Below, piece after piece: positions 3,195-32,000 of a stretch of DNA of 32,000 nucleotides. Below the pieces are notes generated by a model. It saw nothing but the letters and a program-made list of their open reading frames with translations. It did no database searches and was not told the DNA's origin. The position numbers were made by a program, and so were the translations under genes. Numbering within the stretch: the stretch's first letter is position 1; the number at the start of each line of letters is the position of its first letter. Source of the stretch: an uncultured Actinomycetota bacterium (GTDB lineage Bacteria; Actinomycetota; Actinomycetes; Streptosporangiales; Streptosporangiaceae); the NCBI GenBank assembly GCA_963712955.1, contig CAVQKF010000017.1:37739-69738 (forward strand). Reading direction: 5' to 3'.

Positions 3195-3346
3195 CTGCCA
3201 AGCCCGCAGACCCCGCCCGCCGGGAAAGATCCCGCGGGCCGTTCACCCTGATCATGCTGCCCTTGCCGGTTCCTGATGATCATTAAGTTGAAGGTATTAG
3301 GGTCGGCGCGGGTGGCTAACCCTGGGCTAACCCCGCAGCCTCACGG

Positions 3347-6018: not shown

Positions 6019-6495
6019 ATGATGAAAATCAAAGAGGCGGCAACCGGGTTTCTGGCCAGCAAGCGCATCGCAGTCACCGGGGTCTCCCGGACACCACAGG
6101 GCCACGGGAGCAACGTCGTGTACCAGCGCCTGCGGCAACGCGGCTACCAGGTCTTCGCGGTCAACCCGAACGCGGACGAAGTCGAGCACGATCGCTGCTA
6201 CCACGATCTGGCATCCATCCCCGACGGCGTTGACGCGGTCGTCATCGGAACCAGGCCGCAGGTCGCTGAAAGCACCATGCGTGAGTGCGCCGAGCTCGGC
6301 ATCAAGCATGTGTGGATGCACCGGTCCTTCGGCTCGGGGAGCGTCTCCGAAACGGCCACCGATTACGGCCGGGAGCACGGCATTACGGTGATCGACGGAG
6401 GGTGCCCGTGCATGTTCGATCCCACCGCCGACCCCGGGCACAAGGCAATGCGTCTGGTGTTCACCATGACGGGCAAAGTCCCGCGGCAGGTCTGA
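6019..6495 (+). CDS. CoA-binding domain protein (YccU/CoA_binding_2-like)
   Basis: KRIAVTGVSR......G..V...L...GY.VFAVNP ... DAVVIGTRP ... GIKHVWMH pattern. A GAGAGGA RBS-like element precedes the ATG at 6019. Confidence 0.8.
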   Translation: MMKIKEAATGFLASKRIAVTGVSRTPQGHGSNVVYQRLRQRGYQVFAVNPNADEVEHDRCYHDLASIPDGVDAVVIGTRPQVAESTMRECAELGIKHVWMHRSFGSGSVSETATDYGREHGITVIDGGCPCMFDPTADPGHKAMRLVFTMTGKVPRQV

Positions 6496-6545
6496 GCCGA
6501 ACCATTTGCGGCAGCCACCCGTCATCCGCAAGATACGTTCGGTGT

Positions 6546-7674
6546 GTGACGGTGTGGCGGGTCCGTGCAGTGCGGCTGCCCGATGGTGAGGCCATCGATG
6601 CGGGAGTCACCGCCGCTGGCCGTTGGATATCGCAACCGCAGCCGGATGCGGAGCCGCTGCCCGGCATGTTCGTGCTGCCCGGTCTGGTCGATGCGCACTG
6701 TCATCTCAGCGTTGGCCCGGGGCAGGACGGTCCGGCCGGGCTGGGCGTGGACGCGGCGCGGGCCGCGGTCGCGCAGGCCCGCGCCGAGGGGATTACCGGC
6801 ATCCGCGACGTCGGCAGCCCGGGCAGCGTCACCTTGAAACTGCTGGCAGACGACGGCGGTGACCTGGTGGTGTGCGGCCGGTTCCTGGCACCCGCGGGCC
6901 GCTACTTCGGTTCGCTGTATTCCCCGGTCCGGGGCGCCTGGCCTGGTGCCAGCGGCGCTCGCCGAAATCGCGGCCGGCGCGCGCTGGGTGAAGCTGGTCG
7001 GCGATTCCCCGTTCGGCAACGGCACCGCGCGCCCGGACGCGAGCGGGCATCCCGACGGAACCGCGCGATCACGCGCGATGCGGATCCGGCCGGCTCAGCC
7101 GGAGAACGCCACCTTGACCTATCCCGTGGCTGACGTACGGCGCCTGGCCGAGGCTGTGCACGCCGCGGGTGCCCGGGTCGCGGTGCATACGACGAGCGGG
7201 TACGTGCAGGAGCTGATCGACGCCGGAGCCGACTCGATCGAGCACGGCTACGCGCTGGACGAGGTGAGCCTGGCTGCGCTTGCCGAACGCGGCGGAGCCT
7301 GGACGCCCACGCTTTGCGTGGCCCTTGGCCTGGGCCGGGGCCGCGATCCGCAGCAGCGCAGGCGCTGGCAGGAACGCAGGGAACGGCTGGCCTACCTGCT
7401 GCCGCTGGCCGTCGGCCTGGGCGTGACGGTCATGACGGGGACCGATGTGTTCGGGACCATCCCGCAGGAGGTTGACCTGATGACGCGGCTTGGGCTCGCG
7501 CCACGCGATGCGCTGGCCGCGGCCACCACCGCGGCGCGTAGCTACCTCGGCTTTGGTGCACTGGGCGACGGCGAGCCCGCCGATCTGATCAGCTTCGACG
7601 ACGACCCGCGCGACGACCCCGCCGTGCTGGCCCACCCGGTCGCGGTGCTGGTCCGCGGCAGGCGGGTGCGCTGA
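6546..7674 (+). pseudogene. amidohydrolase-family metal-dependent hydrolase with one frameshift
   Basis: The N-terminal part (RLPDG..., PGLVDAHCHL HxH motif, GITGIRDVG, GRFLAPAGRYFGSLYSPV) is in one frame. The rest (APGLVPAALAEIAAGARWVKLVGD ... VAVHT ... SIEHG ... MTGTD ... ADLISFD) is in the +1 frame. The junction at ~6922-6935 lies in cccc/gggg runs. Confidence 0.7.
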
Positions 7675-15453: not shown

Positions 15454-16137
15454 GGCACTGTTGCGTTGCGTCATCCCTGTGCGCGTCAGGGCATGATCAC
15501 TCGAATGCCGCGCTGGTCATATGGTGATTGCCAGGTCGTCGAAGGCGATGCGGAGCCGGTGGCGGTCCGGGGCGTCGGTGGCGATGTCGTAGTGGTCGCG
15601 GCGCAGATTCTGCACGAGGGCGTGACCGGCGGCGAGGGTCCGCGCCGAGCGATGCCGTTTCAGGCCCCGCATCGGCCGGAGCCGGGCCTTCAGCCGTCCG
15701 TGATCTGCTTCGATCGGGTTGTTCGCGTATTGCTCGACGGTGTGCATCGCCGGGAGACCAGCTCGTCGAGGACCCGCGGGGTAGAAGGGCGCGCGGCCGG
15801 TAGTGACCTCGACCGGGACCGGGCCCGCGCGCAGCGCCCGGGTGAAGAAGCGCCGCGGCCGCCAGGTCACGCCTCCTCGACAGCAGAACATCTATGACCT
15901 GGCCATGCTGATCGGCCGCCCGGTAGAGGTAGGTCCACTTACCGCGACCTTCAGGTAGGTCTCGCCGACGAACCACCGGTCACCAGGAGCATGCCGGCAT
16001 GGCCTCGCAGCCTCGATGAACTCCGGGGTGCTGCTACGGCGAGGAGGTCCCGCAGGGGAGCCTCCTCGCCGTAACAGGGATGCTGTGGGACGGGTGTCCG
16101 GACGATCACGCGACCCCGGACGTCCGTCGCTGTTCAT
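15454..16137 (-). mobile_element. IS6-family insertion sequence remnant: one terminal inverted repeat plus a heavily degraded transposase gene
   Basis: GGCACTGTTGCGTT at 15454-15467 matches the IS26/IS6100-type terminal repeat GGCACTGTTGCAAA in its first 11 nt. Transposase pieces are spread over several frames with at least three frameshifts: GDRWFVGETYLKV / GKWTYLYRAADQHGQVIDVLLSRRRD / RRFFTRAL...VEVTT / YPRVLDELV / QYANNPIEADHGRLKARLRPMRGLK. The N-terminal HTH part is partly deleted. No second IR was found. Confidence 0.75.
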
Positions 16138-16229: not shown

Positions 16230-17497
16230 TCAGGGCAGTGTCCACAGGGCCACCGTGTCGCCGGTGACGGGCGCTCCGGCCACGGCGCGCCCGCCGGGGG
16301 AGAACGCGACGGGCCCGGAGCCGATGCTGTGGCCGGTGATGGTGGTGATCCGGGTGACCCTGCCGGGGCCGGTCACGTTCCATCGGGTCACGGTGCTGTT
16401 GCCCGCGATGGTGGTCAGCGCGTGCCCGCCGGCGGAGAACGCGAGCGCGACGTCAGGAAAACCTCCCTGCCGAGCGGGCGGCGCCGGGACGGTGAGGCGG
16501 AGCGTGGCGGTGATGGCCGGCTAGCCGGCCCGGCAACGTTCCACAAGGCCACGGCGCCGTTGTTGCTCGCGCTTGCCAGCAGGTGCCCGTCCGGGGAGAA
16601 CGACAGCGCGGCAATGCCGCCGGCCTGGCGGGTGAGCGTGGCGATGCGGGCGACGCGGGCCGGGTCGGCGGCGTTCCACAAGGCCACCGTGCCGCCGTCG
16701 CTCGCGCTGGCCAGCAGGTGCCCGCCGGGGGAGAACGACAGCGCGGCAATGCGGCCGGCCTGGCGGGTGAGCGTGGCGATGCGGGCGACGCGGGCCGGGT
16801 CGGCGGCGTTCCACAAGGCCACCGTGCCGTCGTCGTAGCCACTGGCCAGGGTGCGCCCGTCCGGGGAGAACGCGACCGCACCCACCCCGGCGGGGCCAGC
16901 TGGCAGGACGGTGATCTGGGCGGGCCGGCCCGGGTGGTGGGCCACGTTCCACAAGATCACGGTCTTGCCGCCGGCGGTGGCCAGGACGCGCCCGTCCGGC
17001 GTGAACGCCGGATCTGTCCCGCTGACGGTGTCCCCCCTGGAGTAGCCGAGCCGCTCGGGACGGGCCAGGTCTGCGGCATTCCATATCTCCAGGCTGGTGC
17101 TGATCGTGGCCACGGTGCGCCCGTCCGGCGAGACCGCCACCCCGAACACTCCCTGGCTCAGCGGCGGCGGCGGCCCGTCATTGCCCAAATTGTCCTGCCA
17201 GACCACGATGCCCGCGAGCAAGACGAGCACCATGAGGCCCGCGATAACGAAACCGGCGGCGGCAAAGGCGTTCTTATGCAGGCGGATCACGGGGAGCCTT
17301 TCGGTCCGGCAGGCCGGGTCCAGGTGCGCGCCGAGGGCACTGGCGGCCAGGTTGAGCACGGTCCGCGCGCCCGCGCGGTGCTGGTCCAGGACATCGAGCA
17401 GTTCCTCGCCGTAGCGCTGCCGCCAGCGGCGCGGGTAGCAGCCGGCCAGCGCGCGGGACAGCCGGGCGGCCAGCGTGCGCCCCATCAGATGCCTCAC
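16230..17497 (-). pseudogene. membrane-anchored WD40 repeat protein with an N-terminal PadR-partner helical domain; one frameshift
   Basis: The ATG at 17497 overlaps the PadR stop (ATGA). An N-terminal helical segment is followed by one TM helix (AAAGFVIAGLMVLVLLAGIVVW), then WD-type repeats (AFSPDGRTLASG..DGTVALWN). The repeats continue in another frame after ~16517-16528 (ITATLRL...ALAFSAGGHALTT..GNSTVTRWNV...VAFSPGGRAVAG...TVALWTLP*), down to the stop at 16230. Confidence 0.7.
16575..16844. repeat. two tandem near-identical 135-bp units (a 45-aa WD repeat duplication)
   Basis: 16575-16709 and 16710-16844 share a ~100-bp core with a single mismatch. Both encode GTVALWNAADPARVARIATLTRQAG.IAALSFSP.GHLLASAS. 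Confidence 0.85.
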
Positions 17498-18620: not shown

Positions 18621-19735
18621 GCGAGCAGTAGAGCCTCCTCCACAAGGGCCTGGACGATCTGTGATTCGGGCACGGTCTTGACCACCTTGCCGCGCACGAA
18701 GATCTGCCCCTTGCCGTTGCCTGAGGCGACCCCGAGATCTGCTTCCCGGGCTTCACCGGGGCCGTTGACCACGCAGCCCATGACCGCGACGCGCAGCGGC
18801 AGCGGAAAGCCGTCGAGGGCTGCGGTGACCTGGTCGGCGAGCTTGTAAACCTCGACCTGGGCGCGACCGCATGACGGGCAGGACACGATCTCCAGCCGCC
18901 GCGGGCGGAGCGCCAGCGACTCGAGGATCTGCTGGCCGGCCTTCACCTCCTCCACGGGCGGGGCGGACAGGGAAACGCGGATGGTGTCGCCGATGCCCTC
19001 CGCCAGCAGGACGCCGAACGCGACGGCGGATTTGATGGTGCCCTGGAGGGATGGGCCGGCCTCGGTGACCCCGAGGTGCAGCGGGTAGTCGCATGCGGCG
19101 GCGAGCTGCCGGTACGCGGCAATCACGACCAGCGGGTCATGATGCTTCACGGAGATCTTGATGTCGGTGAAACCGTGCTCTTCGAAGAGCGAGCATTCCC
19201 GTAGCGCAGACTCCACGAGGGCCTCCGGCGTGGCCCTGCCGTACTTAGCCAGGAGGCGGGCATCGAGCGACCCGGCGTTGACCCCGATCCGGATCGGCAC
19301 CCGCGCCTCGGATGCTGCCCTGGCGATCTCGGCCACTCTGTCATCGAAAGCCTTGATGTTGCCGGGGTTTACCCGTACGCCGGCGCAGCCGGCCCGGATG
19401 GCGGCAAATACGTAACGGGGCTGGAAGTGAATGTCGGCGATCACCGGGATCGGTGACTTTGCCGCGATCACCGGCAGCGCGTCAGCGTCGGCCTGGCTGG
19501 GGACCGCGACCCGCACGATCTGGCAGCCCGCTGCCGTCAGCTCAGCGATCTGCCGCAAGGTCGCTTCTGTGTCCGCCGTCTGCGTCGTGGTCATCGACTG
19601 CACGGACACCGGAGCACCGCCACCAACTGGCACCGCCTTCTCGCCGTCGCCGACAGTGATCCGCCGGGAGATCCGTCGAGTTGCCAAGGGCTCCCCGGAC
19701 CTGGCCGCAGGCATACCGAGCCTGGTGGTGGTCAT
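18593..19735 (-). CDS. ispG: 4-hydroxy-3-methylbut-2-en-1-yl diphosphate synthase (flavodoxin), MEP pathway
   Basis: Full-length 380-aa GcpE/IspG: VQSMTTT...[45 protein letters not shown], the SCPSCGR and [10 protein letters not shown] cluster-binding Cys motifs. Its ATG overlaps the stop of the dxs remnant (ATGA). Confidence 0.95.
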
Positions 19736-20469
19736 AGCGTCCCCGCCTCTGGTGCCTTCTGGCGGTAAGCCAGCACGGCTGCGGTGATCCCGGCGCTATC
19801 GAGCCGGTGCTTGGCCAACATCGCGGCACGGTCGCCGTGCGGGTAGAAGCAGCCGGGCAGCCCAAGACCATGAACGTGGGCGGCGGCTCCAGCCCTGGTG
19901 AGCGCCTCGCTGATCCGGCCGCCGAGTCCACCGGTGACCGGATGCCCCTTACCCTTCGCGGTAACTGTGTGCACAGGCACAGGGCGATGCTGTGCGGCCG
20001 CGCTGCGCAGGGCGTGCTCAAGCGACCCGATGTGGTGCCCGTCAACCGGTCCGAGGTAGGCGATACCGAGGTTCTCGAACAAGCACTTGGCGCGGTGGCC
20101 GAAGGCGTGACCCTGACCAGCGCCGTTCGCGCGCAGCCCGCCGAGATGGGCCGCCACGGCGCCGGCGGTGGGATCGTAGGAGCGGCTGTTGTCGTTGAGC
20201 ACAATGATCACCTGGCGCTGCGAGCCCGCGATGTTGTCGAGTGCTTCCCAGCACATGCCACCGGTGAGCGCCCCGTCGCCAACCACCGCGATCACCCGGC
20301 GCCGCGCCAGGCCCCGCAGACCGAACGCCTTGGCCAGGCCGTCGGCGTACGAGAGGGCCGTGGAAGCGTGAGAATTTTCGATCCAGTCGTGATCCGACTC
20401 GGCCCGGCAGCCGCGCGGGCCCCCGTTCGGGCAGGCGACGTCAAGGGTCATGCCTGGTATGCCTTCCAC
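19732..20469 (-). pseudogene. dxs: 1-deoxy-D-xylulose-5-phosphate synthase remnant (N-terminal truncation plus internal in-frame deletions)
   Basis: 245 codons where Dxs normally has ~620-660. The retained part is the TPP/PP-domain core ([78 protein letters not shown]). It joins directly to the extreme C-terminus (GGLG..ISEAL......V...GLP..F..HG....MLA...LD..GI). The ~100 N-terminal aa and the whole pyrimidine-binding domain are absent. Only ~750 bp exist between ispG and the P450 gene. Confidence 0.75.
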
Positions 20470-24486: not shown

Positions 24487-25722
24487 TCACCAGGTCACAG
24501 GGACTTCGGCGAGGCCCCCGCTGAGGAACTCGCGTCGGGTCCGCAACGTCTCAACCGGCACGGCCAAGCACAGCCGGGGGAAGTGCCGGAAGAGCGAGCC
24601 GAGGCCGATGGACAGTTCCATACGGGCCAGGCTCGCTCCGATGCAGAAGTGCCTGCCGTGCCCGAACGCTATGTGCGGATTTGGCTTGCGGTCCATGTCG
24701 AACCTGTCGGGCTCGGCGAAGACGCTGTGGTCGTGGTTGGCAGCCGCCATACTGAGCAGCACCGCATCCCCGGCCGCAACCGTGACGTCGCCGATCCGGA
24801 GATCATTGCGCGCGTAGCGTGGTGTGACCCCCAATCCGGGGACGACGATGCGCAGCAATTCCTCCACCACGGCAATTGCCCGTGGACCATCGTCCTGTAT
24901 CGCTGCCCGGTGACGCGGATCGGTCAGCAGCAGAACTGTGCCGAGGTCCAGATAAGTGGCGGTTGAGTGATGGCCGGCGAATAGCAGGCCCGCGACCATC
25001 AGCACGATCTCGTTGTCGGCAACTGTGCCGGACTCGTCCCTGACAGCGAGGACGTGGGAGATGAAGTCATCACCGCCGGGTATGCGCCGTCGCTCCTCGA
25101 TCAGAGCGCTGACGTAATTGATGAGTTCCGTCAGCGGCTGCTCGCCCGTCGATCCTTCCGGCGGGCTGATCGCTGCCTCGAACCAGGCGGAGAAGCGCGC
25201 ACGGTCCGCGAAGGGCACCCCGAGCAGCTCACAGATCACTCGGATGGAAAGCGCCAGGGAAAAATCCTCATGCAGATCGGCTGGTGGCGCGCTCGCGCTG
25301 ATCGCATCGAGCAGCGGATCGACGATTCCCTGCACACGCGGCCGCAGGGCGTGCATGCGCCGAGCCGAGAAGGCCGAGCCGGCGACCCTGCGCAGCCGTG
25401 CGTGGTCGGCCTGCTCGGTCGCGTAGCTGCCCTCAGGGCCGCCGAGGATGGCCGAGTTCGACAGCCGCGACGCCCGCTCCGGGTGCGGATGTGACCGGGC
25501 CAGCCTCTCATCGTCAAGCAGCACCTTGACGTCCTCGTATCTTGAGACAAGCCAGGCCGGGTCGCCTGCTGGGGTCAGCACGCGCACCGCGGGCGCCGCT
25601 GATCGGACGGCCTGAAACAAGGGGGCGAGGTCGAGGACGGTCTCCCTGGGAAACGGCAGGACCAGCGCCCGCCCGGCCGGGCACCTTCCGGCGGCCTGAT
25701 GAGCCATCTCAACGTCACTCAC
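24487..25722 (-). CDS. cytochrome P450
   Basis: Heme loop FGHGRHFCIGASLARMEL, I-helix AGHHSTA, ExxR (EELLR). The GTG at 25722 is preceded by GGAGAGGAAAG. Confidence 0.9.
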   Translation of the reverse strand: MSDVEMAHQAAGRCPAGRALVLPFPRETVLDLAPLFQAVRSAAPAVRVLTPAGDPAWLVSRYEDVKVLLDDERLARSHPHPERASRLSNSAILGGPEGSYATEQADHARLRRVAGSAFSARRMHALRPRVQGIVDPLLDAISASAPPADLHEDFSLALSIRVICELLGVPFADRARFSAWFEAAISPPEGSTGEQPLTELINYVSALIEERRRIPGGDDFISHVLAVRDESGTVADNEIVLMVAGLLFAGHHSTATYLDLGTVLLLTDPRHRAAIQDDGPRAIAVVEELLRIVVPGLGVTPRYARNDLRIGDVTVAAGDAVLLSMAAANHDHSVFAEPDRFDMDRKPNPHIAFGHGRHFCIGASLARMELSIGLGSLFRHFPRLCLAVPVETLRTRREFLSGGLAEVPVTW

Positions 25723-25913
25723 TCGTTCTTTCCTCTCCGGCTACGGCGGGCCGCTGCCACCGCGGCGCGGGGCCGACCTAGGCGTGAGAATGACGAGACG
25801 CGGTTAAGACGTGGTTAGTCCGTTTGCGGGATCCAGGATCGTTGCGGGCTGACGGCGGAGTTTCATCAATAACCGCGGTATAACCGGGCCCGGGTACCTT
25901 CATGGTCAGGATT

Positions 25914-26108
25914 CCCGGTGCTTCCGGGAACCCGGTGCTTCCGGGAACCCGGTGCTTCCGGGAACCCGGTGCTTCCGGGAACCCGGTGCTTCCGGGAACC
26001 CGGTGCTTCCGGGAACCCGGTGCTTCCGGGAACCCGGTGCTTCCGGGAACCCGGTGCTTCCGGGAACCCGGTGCTTCCGGGAACCCGGTGCTTCCGGGAA
26101 CCCGGTGC
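25914..26108. repeat. perfect tandem array: 11 complete copies plus 1 partial copy of the 17-bp unit CCCGGTGCTTCCGGGAA
   Basis: Counted directly: unit n starts at 25914+17(n-1), and the last full unit ends at 26100, followed by CCCGGTGC. All full copies are identical. The array lies in the divergent intergenic region between the CDS starts at 25722(-) and 26207(+). Confidence 0.95.
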
Positions 26109-26157
26109 CAGGGACGCACAGCCAGAGGCCCCACGTGTGCCGTGACCGACCTGGATT

Positions 26158-26172
26158 ACGCGCGGCGCGCGT
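26158..26172. promoter_or_regulatory. 15-bp palindrome ACGCGCG-G-CGCGCGT, 35 nt upstream of the monooxygenase start; possible operator
   Basis: Read directly. There is no functional evidence, and GC-rich palindromes can arise by chance in this DNA. Confidence 0.2.
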
Positions 26173-26206
26173 GGCCTCAGGAAATCTGGGAGGAGCTAGG
26201 CCGAAG

Positions 26207-27493
26207 GTGCGTAGATACGACGTCATTATCTGCGGCGCCGGCGTCGGTGGGCTCGCGCTCGCCGTCGGACTCGGCCGGGCTGGCCTGTCTGTGCTCCTCA
26301 TTGAGCGTCGGCGAGCGGATTCCATCGTGCACAAGGGAGAGTTCCTGCAGCCTAGATCGCTGCACATTCTCGATCAGTGGGGCGTGCTGCCAACGATCCG
26401 GCTCGGCGGCGCGGTCGAGATCGATGCGGCGGAGACTCGCGACGCGGACGGCGAGTTTCTCGGCGAGCTTGATTATCGGGTTCTTCCCTCAGATTTCAAC
26501 TATGGCCTTGTTCAGTACTACGAGGAGCTGAAGGGCGCGCTCGAGGGCTGCGCCGGGGCTCTCGTCGACATCCAGCGTGGCGCAAAGGTGGTCGAGCTGC
26601 TCAGGACGGCGAGCGGTCGGGTATCCGGGGTGCAGCTCCAGGGCAGTGACGGCAGCGAGAGCGTCGGCGCGCGGCTGACCGTCGGCGCCGATGGCCGGCT
26701 ATCGCTCGTGCGCCGCGAGCTTGGGATCCAACTGAGGCCCAAGGAGTACGACCACGAAATGATGTCGCTGGACCTAACGAGCGCCGAACTGCGGCCGCGG
26801 GTCGTCGCCTACCTGACAAACGGCGGGCTGCGCGCGCTATACCCGATGCCCGGCGGCAGGGGACGACTGTACGTTCAGATCCGCACCGGAGAGTTCGGGC
26901 AGATCAAGCGCGGCCGCGTTGACGAGTGGCTGGGCCAGCTGCTTGCGGGCGCACCAGGGCTCGCGCACCTGAGATCCTCGTTCCCTGACCGGTTCAGGTC
27001 GGCGCAGGTGCAGCGGGCCTGGCGCTACTGTGCACCGCAGTGGACGCGGCCGGGCGCGGCCCTGATCGGCGACGCGGCCCATTCGGTTCACCCGTCGGCC
27101 GGGCAGGGCATGAACGCCGCCATCATCGACGCATGGACGCTGGCGGCCGCTATCACGACGGCCGGCGGCAGCCGCCCAGACGATGGAAAAATGGACGAAG
27201 CGATCACGCGTTACGAATCGCAACGGCTCCAGGAGTTCCGGAATGTCGCCAGGATCTGCAACCGGATGGCCGTTTTCTGCACGTCCACGTCGCCTTTCAT
27301 CCGCCGGCTTTCGACACACATGGGCCGCAGGAACCGGTCCAACCACCGGTTGCAGTACATGATCGCGTACAACGTCTCCGGCCTCGGGGAGCAGCGGTTC
27401 ACGATCCGCGACCGGATGTGCCAGCTGGGCTTGCTGCCCGACCCGCACGCGGCAGCCGTTCCCGGCCAGCCAGGACGGAGTGGGTCATCGTGA
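26207..27493 (+). CDS. FAD-dependent monooxygenase, squalene-epoxidase-like (class A flavoprotein)
   Basis: A GTG at 26207 follows GGAGC..AAGG. Motifs: dinucleotide fold YDVIICGAGVGGLALA, GEFLQP (cf. the squalene epoxidase GELLQPGG), GADGRLSLVR (DG motif), GDAAHSVHPSAGQGMN (GD motif). The listed ORF start at 25952 runs through the tandem repeat and is not credible. Confidence 0.85.
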   Translation: MRRYDVIICGAGVGGLALAVGLGRAGLSVLLIERRRADSIVHKGEFLQPRSLHILDQWGVLPTIRLGGAVEIDAAETRDADGEFLGELDYRVLPSDFNYGLVQYYEELKGALEGCAGALVDIQRGAKVVELLRTASGRVSGVQLQGSDGSESVGARLTVGADGRLSLVRRELGIQLRPKEYDHEMMSLDLTSAELRPRVVAYLTNGGLRALYPMPGGRGRLYVQIRTGEFGQIKRGRVDEWLGQLLAGAPGLAHLRSSFPDRFRSAQVQRAWRYCAPQWTRPGAALIGDAAHSVHPSAGQGMNAAIIDAWTLAAAITTAGGSRPDDGKMDEAITRYESQRLQEFRNVARICNRMAVFCTSTSPFIRRLSTHMGRRNRSNHRLQYMIAYNVSGLGEQRFTIRDRMCQLGLLPDPHAAAVPGQPGRSGSS

Positions 27494-31228: not shown

Positions 31229-31256
31229 AATGTGCGCGGCGTGTGAACCCCCGCGT

Positions 31257-32000
<744 letters not shown>

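Follow-up and report, generated by a model that had tools for sequence, protein, structure and literature searches.

A perfect 17-bp tandem array in the predicted 5' leader of an actinobacterial epoxidase-cyclase operon, probably a slippage-generated variable-number repeat of a leader hairpin

A 32,000-nucleotide stretch of an uncultured Actinomycetota genome (the window, meaning here the whole stretch that was analysed) contains a tandem array of identical 17-bp units between two divergently oriented operons of a biosynthetic gene cluster. The array is located in the 484-bp gap (25723-26206) that separates a cytochrome P450 gene on the minus strand from an FAD-dependent epoxidase gene on the plus strand. 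It lies neither in an open reading frame (ORF) nor inside either promoter core, and falls within the region that, given the inferred start site, is predicted to form the 5' leader of the epoxidase-cyclase operon. The array is probably a slippage-generated variable-number repeat of a leader hairpin, whose expansion was incidental and whose effect, if any, would be exerted in cis on the leader RNA. Intergenic tandem repeats are already well known in bacteria, and this array adds a real, striking case with documented copy-number variation.

Tandem Repeats Finder reported the array with a period of 17, 11.5 copies, 100% matches and 0% indels (score 390, consensus CCCGGTGCTTCCGGGAA), and slicing the raw sequence every 17 nt yields 11 identical CCCGGTGCTTCCGGGAA followed by CCCGGTGC. 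Each unit consists of a 5-bp G+C stem (CCCGG/CCGGG), a 5-nt loop (TGCTT) and an AA linker, and the copies abut head-to-tail without spacers. When the unit pattern was searched with up to three mismatches, only the 11 array copies were recovered within the window, where 0.21 matches were expected by chance, and none of 100 shuffles reached 11 unit matches. The array ends in a degenerate terminal copy (Table 1), and the ACAG located 3' of this copy corresponds in the alignment to the ACAG 3' of the second copy in two orthologous loci (L001 and L005, described below). An earlier, sequence-only reading of this DNA had described 11.5 perfect 17-bp copies in a 484-bp gap between the starts of the P450 and epoxidase genes, with TTCC-G-GGAA, CCCGG/CCGGG and GGAA-N8-TTCC inside the unit, all of which is borne out by Tandem Repeats Finder and the raw sequence. 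That reading also took the array to be non-coding, and a coding array was indeed rejected: ORFs cross the array only because stop codons are missing from the unit, the frame changes from copy to copy owing to the 17-bp period, and orthologues with two copies or none keep the GTG start codon, the ribosome-binding site and the epoxidase N-terminus. A CRISPR array was rejected as well, since the copies adjoin directly without unique spacers.

Orthologous loci were gathered via protein searches and contig look-ups, and protein-guided searches of metagenome and genome contigs for the epoxidase locus confirmed no relative. L001, from soil metagenome SRR30413551, shares ~91% DNA identity with the window in the flanking genes and 76-83% in the intergenic region, and L005, from a JGI metagenome, is ~99% identical to L001. 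Both loci carry exactly two copies of the 18-bp unit CCGGTTCTTCTGGAAAC(T/A) at the position homologous to the array. In the JGI loci L003/L004 (epoxidase 71% identical), L002 (62%) and L009 (62%), no such unit was found at the homologous site, and the leaders are short; for L010, a JGI locus with a related cluster, the repeat site is not applicable. The suggestion that copy number may vary at orthologous intergenic regions thus holds, with 11.5 copies in the window versus two in L001 and L005, and a spacer-free unit of ~10-100 bp whose copy number differs at an orthologous locus is a variable-number tandem repeat (minisatellite).

The units of the window and of the L001/L005 lineage differ by three substitutions and one indel in 18 positions, a divergence like that of the surrounding intergenic sequence, whereas the copies within each lineage are identical. 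Such identity within lineages despite the difference between them would follow from the hairpin-prone unit acting as a slippage hot spot. The pattern fits recurring duplication and loss, either through slippage-driven concerted evolution or through independent duplication in each lineage, and the copies in the window lineage read as a recent expansion. The L005 leader carries a 24-bp deletion 3' of the repeat relative to L001 (alignment columns 430-453), though the two loci are ~99% identical elsewhere. Judged from these alignments, the leader evolves mainly by insertions and deletions.

To the left of the array are the predicted cores of the two divergent promoters, that of the minus operon as listed in Table 1 and that of the plus operon at 25870-25900. 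The plus-operon transcription start is placed at ~25907-25910, and because both promoters are to its left, the array would belong to the 5' leader of the plus operon, beginning 5-8 nt after the start site and being transcribed as ~+5 to +200 of a ~300-nt leader. The predicted leader measures ~300 nt in the window, ~133 nt in L001, ~110 nt in L005, 45-65 nt in L003 and L009, and ~25 nt in L002. The GTG start codon and the epoxidase N-terminus downstream of it are conserved in L001 and L005. As the array is outside the space between the predicted divergent promoters, changes in copy number would alter the leader and not promoter geometry. The earlier proposal that gain or loss of copies alters promoter spacing is therefore not supported, the array being to the right of both predicted promoter cores, which belong to a class conserved before related operons. 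Nor are the copies additional promoters, because the unit contains neither a TA dinucleotide nor an NANNNT hexamer and a promoter scan detected no promoter-like site inside the array; the unit likewise lacks a TAACC box. An ECF-sigma promoter with GGAAC as its -35 element was rejected, since no CGT-type -10 element occurs at 16-17 nt in the array or at its end.

The first copy and its left flank jointly form a 7-5-7 inverted repeat, TTCCCGG-TGCTT-CCGGGAA, and this hairpin is probably the ancestral element from which the unit was duplicated. Its counterpart in L001 and L005 is TTTCCGG-TTCTT-CTGGAAA, so that CCGG-N5-CYGG is kept across the window and both loci, as is the 5-nt centre. Between the stems UUCCCGG/CCGGGAA of the window and UUUCCGG/CUGGAAA of L001, one C-G pair is replaced by a compensatory U-A pair and one G-C pair becomes G·U. 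The predicted folding energy of one unit is -9.3 kcal/mol for RNA and -5.4 kcal/mol for DNA, and that of the first copy with its 7-bp stem is -15 and -7.9 kcal/mol, respectively. The L001 hairpin reaches -7.7 (RNA) and -3.9 kcal/mol (DNA) on the plus strand, versus -4.2 and -2.1 kcal/mol on the minus strand. Across the two lineages, these features favour a transcribed-strand hairpin, rather than a protein-binding palindrome, as the conserved feature. The whole 308-nt leader has a predicted fold of -179 kcal/mol (z = -4.8). Its ensemble is diffuse, with a best-fold frequency of 0.0005 and a centroid that leaves the array unpaired, in keeping with the earlier expectation that the array could adopt many alternative hairpins.

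A different reading of the same inverted repeat is that the 19-bp TTCCCGG-N5-CCGGGAA, at ~+5 to +23, binds a dimeric repressor, the extra copies serving as a roadblock or as titration sites. It lies in the region that RNA polymerase covers just past the start site, where repressor operators are often found, its 5-nt centre is conserved, and its arms changed symmetrically between lineages. However, neither the window nor the related loci yielded a candidate repressor gene, no regulator gene was detected near the array, and no further copy of the inverted repeat occurs at other promoters of the window or of related clusters, for which reason an operator shared with other promoters was rejected. 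In addition, each arm is 2 bp shorter at its outer end in the internal copies, the G:T mismatch of L001 is acceptable in RNA but weakens the symmetry of the DNA, and more distant orthologues with the same promoter are without the site. The 17-bp period rotates successive sites by ~223 degrees and thus does not provide the spacing (10.5/21 bp) that would place them on one face of the helix. We consider such an operator array quite improbable. The same turn of the helix and the same negative searches argue against the proposal of phased regulator half-sites in the sequence-only reading, as does the lack of conservation of TTCC-G-GGAA, which is replaced in L001 and L005 by TTCTGGAA, one base shorter and asymmetric. 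The two flanking palindromes to which that reading had drawn attention are both present (25884-25893 and 26158-26172), but neither is conserved in L001 or L005, and they were rejected as functional sites.

For the slippage-generated leader repeat, we envisage a short G+C hairpin at the 5' end of the leader, immediately 3' of a SARP-type activator-dependent promoter. This hairpin may have been an ordinary mRNA-protecting 5' stem-loop, as 5' stem-loops can protect bacterial mRNAs. Once duplicated, it would have formed a hairpin-prone direct repeat and hence a slippage hot spot, at which replication slippage or unequal recombination could have generated the eleven identical copies of the window lineage. 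Any effect would be felt in cis and by the plus operon only, through the length or structure of the leader RNA (its stability, its processing or access to the ribosome-binding site) or, by an alternative cis route, through hindrance of RNA polymerase, and not through promoter geometry. On balance, we judge the expansion to be an incidental event with almost no effect or a slight dampening one, and not a switch that was selected for.

Several points weigh against this interpretation. The plus-operon promoter and its start site are predicted from recurring motifs only, and searches of the 32-kb window revealed no SARP gene, even with a relaxed Pfam threshold. The covariation in the stem amounts to a single compensatory pair, and only two lineages possess the element. 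The figure of 11.5 copies comes from a single assembly, and the difference in copy number is one between lineages that are ~91% identical, not one within a population.

The array could also be a selected contingency or rheostat locus, in which gain and loss of leader copies tune epoxidase-cyclase expression in a graded, heritable and reversible manner, via RNA structure or RNase III processing. Such a locus would accord with the array's placement in the predicted 5' leader, with the difference in copy number between lineages, with the high turnover rate implied by identical copies, and with the strong predicted structure of the leader, and it has precedents in the hmw1A leader repeat (PMC12721329) and the promoter tandem repeats of Mycobacterium tuberculosis (PMC12817950). 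However, L001 and L005, which come from different samples and are ~99% identical, both have exactly two copies, and a leader that tolerates the 24-bp deletion of L005 and ranges from ~25 to 300 nt in orthologues appears to be under weak constraint. A selected rheostat is an unlikely explanation in our view. By analogy with known systems, each added hairpin might alter the epoxidase-cyclase mRNA in its stability, its processing or its translation, so that slippage would yield subpopulations differing in terpenoid output; a selected RNA-level dial of this kind, which would amount to an actinomycete equivalent of the hmw1A leader repeat made of self-folding units, is rather improbable. Should copy number tune expression, a soil actinomycete could by this simple means vary the output of a secondary-metabolite operon heritably and reversibly, and cluster engineers would have ready-made leader variants.

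A perfect 195-bp repeat exceeds the k-mers of short-read assemblers, so that its copy number can be mis-estimated, and several genes of the window are frameshifted; the array or its length could accordingly have arisen from a mis-assembled short repeat. This concern applies to copy number only, and a Logan contig of run ERR11523645 (L007, 3,284 bp), derived from the same strain as the window, bears directly on it. Over its length, L007 departs from the window in two places, with one mismatch at its tip and 2 bp deleted within the P450 gene, which indicates that it is a separate assembly. It is identical to the window across the left intergenic part and the left array junction, and ends exactly 30 nt into the array. 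Logan assemblies use k = 31, and because a unitig at this k stops k-1 nt into a repeat only if a 31-mer recurs, the repeat must span at least ~48 bp (2.8 copies) in the reads. The existence of the array in independent read data is therefore secure, with its left junction and about three or more copies backed. The presence of two copies at the same site in orthologues also speaks against an artefact, as does the degenerate terminal copy, which is typical of real tandem arrays. Taken as an account of the array, mis-assembly is highly improbable. Even if the array is neutral, the locus serves as a warning for metagenome assembly, as the contig built at k = 31 is interrupted precisely there. The two bases (GC) that L007 lacks are at window 25378-25379 inside the P450 gene, where their absence cuts the called product to 289 amino acids, and this reflects either variation between strains or an error in one of the assemblies.

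The unit had not been recognised as any described actinomycete repeat family, and wider searches are in line with this. None of the genomes searched, one for each of 185,579 species, contains the exact 26-mer that corresponds to 1.5 units, blastn revealed no match of the region to plasmids, and Rfam gave no match at gathering score anywhere in the window. A degenerate two-unit pattern had one match in JGI metagenome contigs, L006 (Ga0335073_10017458), which contains the exact 17-mer twice at 7405-7439, 1 nt apart (18-bp period). L006 was rejected as a relative, since its repeat is coding and translates into VPGSTG in duplicate at the N-terminal end of a sensor histidine kinase beside a response regulator. 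Like REP- and MITE-like families, the array consists of a short, G+C-rich unit with an inverted repeat in an intergenic position. Unlike them, it occupies one locus only, with no other copy in the window, the species genomes or the plasmids, and with the coding L006 as its single, unrelated metagenome match.

Two well-described systems offer closer comparisons. In M. tuberculosis, promoter tandem repeats with units of 54-58 bp, each containing promoter sequence, occur upstream of dop, lpdA-glpD2 and cysG-efpA (PMC12817950). The array falls into their broad class and resembles them in being actinobacterial and promoter-proximal, in having head-to-tail, near-identical copies whose number differs between related genomes, and in being easily missed or mis-sized by short reads. 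However, extra copies add promoters in M. tuberculosis, whereas the 17-bp unit contains neither a -10-like hexamer nor an activator box and is positioned downstream of the predicted start. In Haemophilus influenzae, hmw1A/hmw2A have an (ATCTTTC)n tract with a 7-bp A+T-rich unit in the 5' leader, and this unit base-pairs with a distinct G-rich arm, giving a single long hairpin that is cleaved by RNase III (PMC12721329). As in hmw1A, the tract is located between the (predicted) promoter and the start codon and would be transcribed in the leader, with an effect proposed to act via RNA structure; unlike in hmw1A, each 17-nt unit is itself a G+C hairpin. Among known systems, the array would by analogy work most like the hmw1A leader repeat.

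The promoters flanking the array, as distinct from the array itself, show SARP-type organisation. In SARP promoters, the spacing between the direct repeats is 11 bp (one helical turn) or 22 bp, and 8 bp separate the 3' repeat from the -10 element (PMC10936776). The flanking promoters follow this spacing rule as TAACCNN-N4-TAACCNN-N7-NANNNT, the 7-nt gap becoming 8 nt when the heptamer register is shifted by one base. They share with described SARP promoters (PMC10936776) heptamers 11 bp apart, a distance of 7-8 bp to the -10 element, recurrence before several operons of one cluster and the presence of a SARP gene (Trans_reg_C and BTAD domains) in a related cluster (L002). They differ in that no match of the heptamer TAACCNN to a characterised SARP site was found and in that the window yielded no SARP gene. 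The 11-bp repeat of the minus promoter (25796-25817) was also reported by Tandem Repeats Finder, and the plus-operon boxes are present in L001, L002, L003, L005, L009 and L010. TAACY-N6-TAACY occurs three times in the window, versus 0.01 expected. Ahead of operons, L002 has four such sites, one per operon start; three exact sites occur in L010, along with a fourth that contains one mismatch; there are two in each of L001, L005 and L009; and L003 and L004 each combine an exact site with a mismatched one. Of 19 box pairs, 18 have an NANNNT hexamer (e.g., TACCTT, CATTCT, TAGCGT and TATGCT) exactly 7 nt further on.

An ATG lies 7 nt (L010) and 9 nt (L002) after the predicted hexamer, and one of the two begins a condensation domain whose N-terminal sequence, MHLPAYPLSFAQ, is the canonical one. 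These ATGs, in two related operons, are consistent with leaderless transcripts, which supports the assignment of the hexamer as a -10 element. The ATGs are at 6994 in L010 and 3386 (minus strand) in L002, and the database gene calls start at 6946 and 3371, respectively; these database starts are probably wrong. From its recurrence, TAACCNN-N4-TAACCNN-N7-NANNNT defines a candidate promoter class at the operon starts of the epoxidase/type II cyclase terpenoid cluster family, and this class is probably the regulon of a cluster-encoded SARP. The promoter class could guide the activation of epoxidase/type II cyclase clusters, a result that stands even if the array is neutral. A third exact box, TAACC-N6-TAACC, is found at 3317-3334 (plus strand), 22 kb from the cluster and ahead of a Pfam-less ORF (3378/3444-4151), with a weak hexamer, CACGGC, at the -10 position; it could be a distant member of the cluster-promoter regulon or a chance occurrence.

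Table 1. Coordinates of the array and of neighbouring features in the window
Feature	Position	Strand	Remarks
Tandem array	25914..26108	+	11 identical CCCGGTGCTTCCGGGAA and first 8 nt of a twelfth
Degenerate terminal copy	26101..26117	+	CCCGGTGCCAGGGACGC; first 8 nt are the 0.5 copy of Tandem Repeats Finder
First copy with left flank	25911..25929	+	7-5-7 inverted repeat
Minus-operon promoter (predicted)	25787..25817	-	TAACCAC (25817-25811), TAACCGC (25806-25800), 7-nt gap, -10-like CATTCT (25792-25787)
Plus-operon activator boxes	25870..25887	+	TAACCGC and TAACCGG, 11 bp apart; SARP-type direct repeats
Predicted plus-operon -10 hexamer	25895..25900	+	TACCTT, 7 nt after second heptamer
Predicted 5' leader of epoxidase-cyclase operon	25907..26206	+	~300 nt; array makes up ~2/3
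Ribosome-binding site	26188..26195	+	GGGAGGAG, ahead of GTG 26207
Cytochrome P450 gene	24487..25722	-	First of minus operon
FAD-dependent epoxidase gene	26207..27493	+	First of plus operon; GTG start at 26207

The minus operon encodes the P450, a ketopantoate-reductase-like enzyme, a free condensation domain, an MbtH-like protein, a second P450, a short DXS fragment and GcpE. The plus operon comprises the epoxidase and, next to it on the same strand, a type II terpene cyclase, and is followed on the minus strand by genes for an aryl-acid-type adenylating enzyme and a chorismate-binding enzyme. Named relatives of the epoxidase in the protein search include a putative monooxygenase of Streptomyces argenteolus, and we take the gene set to resemble terpenoid clusters of the longestin, brasilicardin and phenalinolactone type, in which an epoxidase is combined with a cyclase. 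The window, with a G+C content of 62-76%, appears to derive from a soil actinomycete, and the cluster extends past its right end. At this edge, the chorismate-binding enzyme gene (31230-32000, minus strand) is frameshifted, one of the shifts being a 2-bp deletion at ~31610 relative to L001, and represents either a pseudogene or an assembly error.

On the left side, an amidohydrolase gene (6285-7674, plus strand) is split into two overlapping ORFs, the DXS gene of the cluster (19732-20469, minus strand) is only a 245-amino-acid fragment adjoining the intact GcpE gene, and a fragment of an IS240-type DDE transposase (15497-15976, minus strand) is located left of the cluster. These three features suggest decay or rearrangement at the left border of the cluster. 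In addition, a 135-bp tandem repeat at 16537-16922 (2.5-2.9 copies, 83-90% identity) is coding and corresponds to the WD40 blades of an ORF at 16415-17497 (minus strand).

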